Positions 9,329-10,213 of a stretch of DNA of 64,000 bases are shown here, one piece after another. Source of the DNA: Candidatus Jordarchaeia archaeon (lineage in GTDB: Archaea; Asgardarchaeota; Jordiarchaeia; Jordiarchaeales; Jordiarchaeaceae); NCBI GenBank assembly GCA_029856435.1, contig JAHQXB010000063.1:27053-91052 (forward strand). Reading direction: 5' to 3'. The stretch's first letter is position 1; each line of letters starts with the position of its first letter. The notes beneath the pieces are model-generated. The model searched no databases, was not told the DNA's origin, and saw nothing but the letters and a program-made list of their open reading frames with translations. The translations under genes and the position numbers were made by a program.

Positions 9329-9461
9329 ATTCTCTCATTTTTTTCATTAATTGATAGAAGAGATTTTACACCCTCCTCAACTTTAAGTCGGGACTTTATA
9401 GCCAATGATTCTGTAATTCCGTACCTCTATTTTTGGAGGGTTAAATAGAGAAAAGGAGGGA

Positions 9462-9668
9462 TGGTGCGGAGGACGAGATGTGTTCAGGGGGTAGCAGGTA
9501 CCACCGCCTTTGAACTCGTGTAGGCCTATGTGAACTCCCAGATGACTGGGGGTTTCTACGCCACAGGAGCTCTGATATGCGAGTGATTTGAACTCGAAAA
9601 CCTCAGTCCTGCTCCATGCCAGTCGAGCCCTTGAGGGGCGACATTTGACCTGGCTCGGAAACCTCCGC
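9462..9668 (-). tRNA. tRNA-Leu(GAG) with four introns (9643-9616, 9600-9570, 9555-9526, 9509-9480), CCA encoded
   Basis: Removing the inserts gives GCGGAGG TT TCCGAGCCAGGTCAAAGGA G CAGGA CTGAGGC TCCTG TGGCGTAGGCCT AC ACGAG TTCAAAT CTCGT CCTCCGC ACCA, a complete class II cloverleaf. BHB central helices are GUCA/UGGC, CUGA/UCAG and GUUC/GAAC; the variable-arm one is relaxed. Confidence 0.93.
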
Positions 9669-9736
9669 ACATATACATATATTGGCAAAATAGGATTACA
9701 CTAAACCAGTTTTTATAAGTTTCTATGGTAGGTAAC

Positions 9737-10044: not shown

Positions 10045-10213
10045 GCAGGGATTTCCGAGTGGTCAATACCCAGCAGTGGTTGGCTACAGGAGCTGGGCTT
10101 AGGACCCAGTGGCGTAGTGGTGTCGGCCTGTTTTGGTGGCGCCGCGTAAGCCTTCGCGTGTTCGAAAAGAAGCATCAGATTGATGCAGCTCGATAGTCAC
10201 GCTCCCTGCACCA
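10045..10213 (+). tRNA. tRNA-Leu(UAG) with three introns (10067-10087, 10118-10149, 10167-10196), CCA encoded
   Basis: Spliced sequence GCAGGGA TT TCCGAGTGGTCAAAGGA G CTGGG CTTAGGA CCCAG TGGCGTAGGCCT TC GCGTG TTCGAAT CACGC TCCCTGC ACCA; anticodon TAG at 10100-10102; each insert folds as a BHB-like motif. Confidence 0.93.

Follow-up and report, generated by a model that had tools for sequence, protein, structure and literature searches.

The locus described here is most probably the one tRNA-Leu(GAG) gene, and a functional one, in a genome from the Freyarchaeia (Asgard), with a transcript that would be spliced at four introns, a reading to which sequence comparison leads us to give a probability of a little over nine in ten. 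The gene is 207 nt long, lies on the minus strand of the window, by which we mean the whole 64-kb stretch of DNA that was analysed, running from 9668 down to 9462, and is divided into five exons and four introns (Table 1).

Gene architecture and tRNA detection

Read on the minus strand, the gene starts with GCGGAGG-UU-UCCG-AGCCAGGUCAAA, its G1 lying at 9668, and finishes with CUCGU-CCUCCGC-A-CCA, the last A of the encoded CCA (9462-9464) lying at 9462. Both ends fit a class II tRNA and pair into an acceptor stem of 7 bp without a mismatch, although they are set 207 nt apart. ARAGORN and Rfam at gathering thresholds reported no tRNA anywhere in the raw window; tried on unspliced sequence with and without the intron options of ARAGORN, they gave no hit or else nonsense models. 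The inserts were then cut out in silico at gene positions 26-53, 69-99, 111-141 (or 114-143) and 160-189, removal of 111-140 giving a product identical to that of the 114-143 cut. From the spliced product, which is 87 nt long with a 31-nt variable-arm intron and 88 nt long with a 30-nt one, ARAGORN called a tRNA-Leu(GAG) whose acceptor stem has 7 bp and which shows A73, a TTCAAAT T-loop, a long variable arm and the anticodon GAG. Its variable region of 13 or 14 nt holds a 3-bp stem, as in a class II tRNA-Leu, and the product's D-loop, AGCCAGGUCAAA, recurs unchanged in the intron-less Leu genes of G015 and G025. Retaining the D-loop, variable-arm or T-loop insert left ARAGORN with no tRNA detected.

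An earlier, sequence-only reading of this DNA had placed a tRNA-Leu(GAG) at 9462-9668 with introns in the D-loop at 22/23, at the anticodon position 37/38, in the variable arm and in the T-loop at 58/59. Its coordinates were exact, for a gene on the minus strand, and the number and all of the sites of the introns were right. The intron total that it gave, 119 of 207 nt, holds if the variable-arm intron is 30 nt long, whilst a 31-nt intron raises it to 120 of 207; both totals arise because this intron has two registers. We also considered a different D-loop intron, at gene positions 18-47 (H CGAG/CUCG), which ARAGORN accepts, but this was rejected as it destroys the D-loop common to the intron-less homologues and has no counterpart in G005.

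Across the whole host genome, a 97.8% complete assembly, RF00005 found only 7 tRNAs. This low count fits the high share of intron-bearing tRNA genes published for these genomes, in which 92-95% of tRNA genes have introns and more than half have several. Since ARAGORN and Rfam miss such genes entirely, the tRNA complements of Asgard MAGs are under-called.

Table 1. Features of the tRNA-Leu(GAG) locus and associated genes (window coordinates unless a locus is named; H, h and h' are helices of the BHB motif)
Feature	Coordinates	Strand	Basis or remarks
tRNA-Leu(GAG) gene	9462..9668	-	ends, in-silico splicing and ARAGORN
Exon 1: acceptor 5' strand, positions 8-9, D-stem 5' strand, D-loop to 22	9644..9668	-	D-arm matches intron-less Leu of G015/G025
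Intron 1, 28 nt, D-loop 22/23	9616..9643	-	H GUCA/UGGC, h' 4 bp, without outer h (relaxed HBh')
Exon 2: D-stem 3' strand, position 26, anticodon stem 5' strand, loop to 37 (GAG)	9601..9615	-	
Intron 2, 31 nt, canonical 37/38	9570..9600	-	hBHBh', H CUGA/UCAG, h 6 bp
Exon 3: position 38, anticodon stem 3' strand, variable-arm start	9556..9569	-	end 9559 (31-nt register) or 9556 (30-nt register)
Intron 3, variable arm	9526..9558	-	register a 9528-9558 (31 nt); register b 9526-9555 (30 nt)
Exon 4: variable-arm 3' strand, T-stem 5' strand, T-loop 54-58	9510..9525	-	start 9527 in register a
Intron 4, 30 nt, T-loop 58/59	9480..9509	-	hBHBh', H GUUC/GAAC, h 2 bp, h' 2 bp plus inner hairpin
Exon 5: T-loop 59-60, T-stem 3' strand, acceptor 3' strand, A73, CCA	9462..9479	-	
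Putative BRE/TATA promoter AGAAACTTATAAAAA	9710..9724	-	conserved in five species
T-rich trailer CCTTTTCTCTATTT after CCA	9443..9461	-	sequence
Spurious 101-aa ORF over the tRNA gene	9383..9688	-	frame broken in two congeners
tRNA-Leu(TAG), divergent neighbour	10045..10213	+	published complete genome has the same Leu(TAG)/Leu(GAG) pair
EndA paralogues	L013:1178-1756 and L014:1195-1788 (G000 C104 and C64)		

BHB motifs at the intron junctions

Junctions were scored for a BHB motif made up of a 4-bp helix between exon positions -6 to -3 and intron positions -6 to -3 with two 3-nt bulges, the cuts falling after the second bulge nucleotide, and this geometry was checked on the gene's own canonical 37/38 intron. 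The site pairs that restore the cloverleaf are, in gene numbering, 25/53, 68/99, 110/141 (H GUGG/UCAC) and 159/189. At introns 1, 2 and 4 the central helix is fully paired (4/4) with a 3-nt bulge on each side, at the sites defined by the cloverleaf, and the motif of intron 3 is 4/4 in one register (a) and a relaxed 3/4 in the other (b). Only about 0.3% of the approximately 20,000 site pairs within the gene pass comparable BHB criteria, and with so few qualifying the motifs at the cloverleaf-restoring sites are not a product of chance. The earlier suggestion that the BHBs use exon bases needed later in the cloverleaf is borne out: within the intron 4 motif the T-stem base G53 is paired to the intron, and anticodon-stem positions 41-43, used by the intron 3 motif in register a, also lie within the outer helix of the intron 2 motif.

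The two registers of the variable-arm intron differ in where they find their support. In register a (the 111-141 cut) the intron is cut after UGGCG and before AGGCC, with H GUGG/UCAC; this central helix is 4/4 in G000 (the host genome), G001, G004, G002, G005a and the neighbouring Leu(TAG) gene, and h' is only 1 bp in the present gene. In register b (the 114-143 cut) it is cut after UGGCGUAG and before GCC, with H GCGU/ACAU containing a C.A mismatch and with the loop GUAG; the helix is 4/4 in G002 and in Leu(TAG), the latter having an h' of 7 bp. Splicing in register b yields a GYAG variable loop, as in the intron-less region of the G036 homologue, and this register matches the tRNAscan-SE call for the published G005b gene. 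Register a is the better strict BHB in this gene; overall, we lean slightly towards register b, and under either register there would be one variable-arm intron. The sequence-only reading thus had the position of this intron and its singleness right, and its length of 30 nt is that of register b, with the 31-nt register a fitting as well.

Folding of the precursor and possible order of splicing

Constrained folding of the primary transcript gave a cost above the MFE of 1.4 kcal/mol for the motif of intron 2, 1.8 for that of intron 4, 6.4 for that of intron 1 and 10.2 for that of intron 3, the last computed for register a (31 nt) only, and forming all four motifs together cost 19.7 kcal/mol. 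After removal of intron 1 or intron 2 the cost of the intron 3 motif falls to 5-6 kcal/mol. The MFE fold of the precursor does not show the BHBs as such, the variable-arm region taking the form of a long hairpin, and the precursor folds better than all 200 of its shuffles (z = -4.0). These modelled energies suggest that introns 2 and 4 may leave early and intron 3 later, as a preference and not as an obligatory order. It had been proposed that the overlap between motifs and cloverleaf implies ordered refolding and splicing; refolding between cuts is reasonable, whilst a strict order is not required by the energy calculations.

From the architecture, the motifs, their conservation and the enzyme genes present, we infer the following course for transcription, cleavage and ligation. 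The conserved BRE/TATA promoter would give a precursor of about 230 nt, from which RNase P would remove the 5' leader; the archaeal splicing endonuclease would excise the four introns at their BHB motifs, and RtcB would join the five exons into an 84- or 85-nt class II tRNA plus the encoded CCA. The motifs of introns 2 and 4 could form directly in the primary transcript, and those of intron 1 and the variable arm would need local refolding, which for the variable arm should come more cheaply once intron 1 or intron 2 has gone. Counting against this scheme are the lack of an outer helix in the intron 1 motif, the variable-arm motif, which is ambiguous in register as well as the costliest to form, and the MFE fold of the precursor, in which the BHBs are not seen as such.

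Enzymes that could cut out the introns and join the exons are encoded in the host genome, which has two EndA paralogues (PF01974 matches of 108 and 80 bits) and one RtcB match (PF01139, 579 bits). The alignment of EndA paralogue 1 (192 aa) to 3P1Z_B, the catalytic chain of the Aeropyrum pernix alpha2beta2 splicing endonuclease (E = 3e-45), spans the whole protein and takes in the GIDHAP histidine. This paralogue also has an extra loop segment that aligns to the EKPRGADFEGP loop of A. pernix. We take this segment to be the Crenarchaea-specific loop that is implicated in cleaving non-canonical BHBs. In EndA paralogue 2 (197 aa), Thr replaces the catalytic His and there is a 9-residue gap at the loop. 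The endonuclease of this Asgard archaeon is therefore probably a crenarchaeal-type alpha2beta2 heterotetramer, which would be expected to have broad specificity. A separate observation is that the sole RtcB match in the genome (G000 C93:302-1636, minus strand) has one in-frame TGA.

Flanking sequences and the neighbouring Leu(TAG) gene

Together with about 25 nt downstream of it, AGAAACTTATAAAAA is conserved in all five species compared, and the sequence further upstream diverges; we read this block as a putative BRE/TATA promoter. At the other end of the gene, the T-rich stretch CCTTTTCTCTATTT is likely to act as an oligo-T terminator. In G000, about 8 extra nt, forming a ATATGTAT-like repeat at 9669-9676 on the minus strand, lie between the promoter block and the 5' end of the tRNA, so that the leader would be about 8 nt longer than in G004, G001 and G002.

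The divergent Leu(TAG) gene, which has no intron at 37/38, carries introns of its own in the D-loop (21 nt), the variable arm (32 or 33 nt) and the T-loop (about 30 nt). As in Leu(GAG), UGGCGUAG precedes the variable-arm intron, whose interior is unrelated. A quick anchor search found no clean BHB for the T-loop intron of this gene.

Comparison with congeneric genomes

The gene was compared with its orthologues from four congeners (G001, G002, G004 and G005). The exons are identical to those of G000 at 87 of 87 positions in both G004 and G001, whereas the introns, of about 120 nt in all, carry 9 substitutions in G004 and 11 in G001, plus 2 indel positions in each (Fisher p for exon versus intron divergence = 0.003 and 0.0008, respectively). 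Between G000 and G005b five stem pairs have changed in a compensatory manner: 3:70 and 7:66 (both G-C to A-U), 27:43 (C-G to U-A), 49:65 (A-U to G-C) and 50:64 (C-G to G-C). Each of these pairs spans exons that introns separate, which indicates that the exons are constrained as one cloverleaf. A 101-aa ORF also covers the locus, and the sequence-only reading was right to dismiss it as a misreading: 1-nt intron indels in G004 and G001 put stops in its frame, and the ORF is spurious.

The introns themselves turn over fast within this one genus, their interiors being replaced whilst their cut sites stay fixed. The G002 orthologue lacks exactly the 31-nt intron 2 and keeps the other three, so that one species has lost the canonical intron and retained three non-canonical ones; its joined sequence reads ...CTGAGG/C..., and this junction, CUGAGG/C UUCUG, fixes the 37/38 splice site. 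In G002 and G005 intron 4 has an unrelated interior, yet it preserves H (GUUC/GAAU) along with its bulges and cut sites and forms an h' of 9 bp. The D-loop intron measures 28-29 nt in G000, G001, G004 and G002; that of G005 is down to 13-14 nt and that of the adjacent Leu(TAG) gene is 21 nt long, with an identical junction and a 4-bp H in all of these genes.

The mature sequence matches the assembly at this locus only, exon by exon, and we conclude that the assembly, a draft that is 97.8% complete with 5.7% estimated contamination, holds no intron-less copy of Leu(GAG), such a copy having been named beforehand, together with silence of this locus, as something that would overturn the reading. 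A second copy might still lie in unassembled DNA. The gene is probably essential. BLAST of the four introns against the host genome found no related copies, and there is accordingly no sign of recent intron transposition. A metagenome scan with a 15-mer of exon 2 added no orthologue among the matches listed, these being unrelated Leu genes.

In G005 a second Leu(GAG)-like copy (G005a, L004:1460-1657; G005 C1:1888895-1889092) lies about 630 nt downstream of the published gene, and the published tRNA table does not list it. All four intron sites recur in this copy, whose 3' acceptor strand, CCTCCGC, is of the G000 type, but it lacks the promoter block and has no 5' acceptor strand in its place. 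We considered whether a 269-nt fifth intron might link it to a GCGGAGG heptamer upstream (H CGGA/UUUG), but this BHB is weak, with no flanking helices, and the heptamer falls inside a plausible 91-aa ORF, which makes a fifth intron the less likely reading. G005a is probably a 5'-truncated duplicate.

A T-arm copy within the anticodon intron

Within intron 2, the 12 nt of CGAGTTCAAATC repeat exactly the T-arm in its spliced form, with the T-loop intron removed; a copy of this length was reached by 1 of 5000 shuffles. G005a and G005b retain a comparable hairpin loop, UUCNAAYCA, in their intron 2, and in G001 and G004 it is decaying. One might imagine that intron 2 descends wholly or partly from a mature spliced tRNA, or that the copy serves as a surrogate T-arm which aids folding of the precursor, although we consider this proposal unlikely. 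Were descent true, the copy would be a footprint of RNA-mediated intron birth; were it a surrogate, it would help the precursor to fold while the real T-loop is still split. In either case the copy is not essential, given that G002 has lost the whole of intron 2. Intron 3 also contains GAGTTCA.

Alternative readings of the locus

One alternative is that only three introns are removed and the variable-arm insert is retained as a variable arm of about 44 nt. Its appeal comes from the variable-arm BHB, the weakest of the four, with two competing registers, a cost of 10.2 kcal/mol and a 1-bp h' in register a, a 3/4 H in register b, and a region that folds as a long hairpin in the MFE structure. 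Against it, seven genes with unrelated insert interiors share one cut geometry, Leu(TAG) having a 7-bp h' in register b, and the BHB model of tRNAscan-SE calls the variable-arm intron in the published paralogue. The interior of the insert has also diverged as much as the other introns have, between flanks that do not vary, and removal of the insert restores the GYAG variable loop of the intron-less homologues. To our knowledge, no tRNA-Leu with a 44-nt variable arm has been described, and we regard retention of the insert as very unlikely. Splicing at all four introns remains the preferred reading.

That the locus could instead be a decaying pseudogene, a tRNA-Leu relic full of insertions from which no functional tRNA is made, might be suspected since standard finders miss it and since the related G005a looks 5'-truncated. 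Such a relic would not be expected to show exons that stay perfectly conserved while the introns diverge, compensatory changes in its stems or a conserved promoter, nor to be the sole Leu(GAG) gene in a 97.8%-complete genome. A G34 tRNA-Leu is the normal reader of CUU and CUC in archaeal decoding. We therefore consider decay highly improbable. Chance resemblance, whereby a GC-rich stretch would allow a cloverleaf after arbitrary deletions, draws on the permissiveness of ARAGORN and on several other BHB-like deletion combinations that also give a 'tRNA'. Yet a single combination is common to all orthologues, it alone reproduces the D-loop, variable loop and T-loop found in intron-less homologues, and the precursor is more stable than 200 of 200 shuffles. 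Chance is scarcely credible as an explanation, the comparative data having effectively refuted it, and a functional gene spliced at four introns is the reading that we carry forward.

Relation to known multi-intron tRNA genes

The sequence-only reading had claimed that four introns exceed the maximum reported for an archaeal tRNA and had looked to Thermoproteales for comparison. 'Up to three' introns per archaeal tRNA gene is indeed the figure stated with tRNAscan-SE 2.0 (PMC8450103), but the claim fails on a check of the literature, as four-intron tRNAs, Leu-GAG among them, had already been tabulated by Valentin-Alvarado et al. (2024, Nat Commun; PMC11291895), whose Supplementary Data 4 has columns for a fourth intron. 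In the complete SRVP Freyarchaeia genome of that study (PMC11291895), Arg-TCT, Ile2-CAT and Leu-GAG have 4 introns each, and an Atabeyarchaeia Trp-CCA also has 4. The published Leu-GAG (1888074-1888267) was given 3 introns by tRNAscan-SE and its fourth by R2DT curation (PMC11291895), and the first and last bases of the Leu(GAG) gene in G005, which is of the same genus as our host, are those of this entry, 1888074 and 1888267. The nearest comparison is accordingly not Thermoproteales, since the window belongs to the Freyarchaeia/Jordiarchaeia lineage of the Asgard archaea.

A recent preprint (Goswami et al. [quoted passage not shown] The preprint also reports that D-arm inserts are systematically missed by annotators and that inserts prefer BHB boundaries; loss of a canonical intron in one congener with three non-canonical introns kept was not found stated in the literature consulted.

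The gene resembles the multi-intron tRNAs of Thermoproteales in having non-canonical BHB introns, several to a gene, alongside what is probably a heterotetramer-type endonuclease of broad specificity. Those multi-intron tRNA genes were reportedly described by Sugahara in 2008 and by Fujishima in 2010. Families of introns that have undergone 'transposition' have been described in Thermoproteales, whereas in the present genome no sequence-similar intron copies were found elsewhere. The two also differ in phylum and in number, with a maximum of three introns per gene there (PMC8450103) and four here.

The present gene is the orthologue, in another species, of the published four-intron Leu-GAG, and so adds an example without setting a record. 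Its value is that of a well-documented case, which by itself opens no new question: four separate endonuclease/ligase events may be needed to make one tRNA that is single-copy and apparently essential. What is added here, namely loss of the canonical intron in one congener, the register ambiguity of the variable arm and the 12-nt T-arm copy, is a small addition. The two genes are alike in genus, anticodon, promoter block, divergent Leu(TAG) neighbour and all four intron sites. They differ in that the D-loop intron is 28 nt long here and 13 nt in the published gene, the interiors of intron 4 are unrelated, the acceptor strand reads GCGGAGG here and GCAGAGA there, and five stem pairs have changed in a compensatory manner between them.
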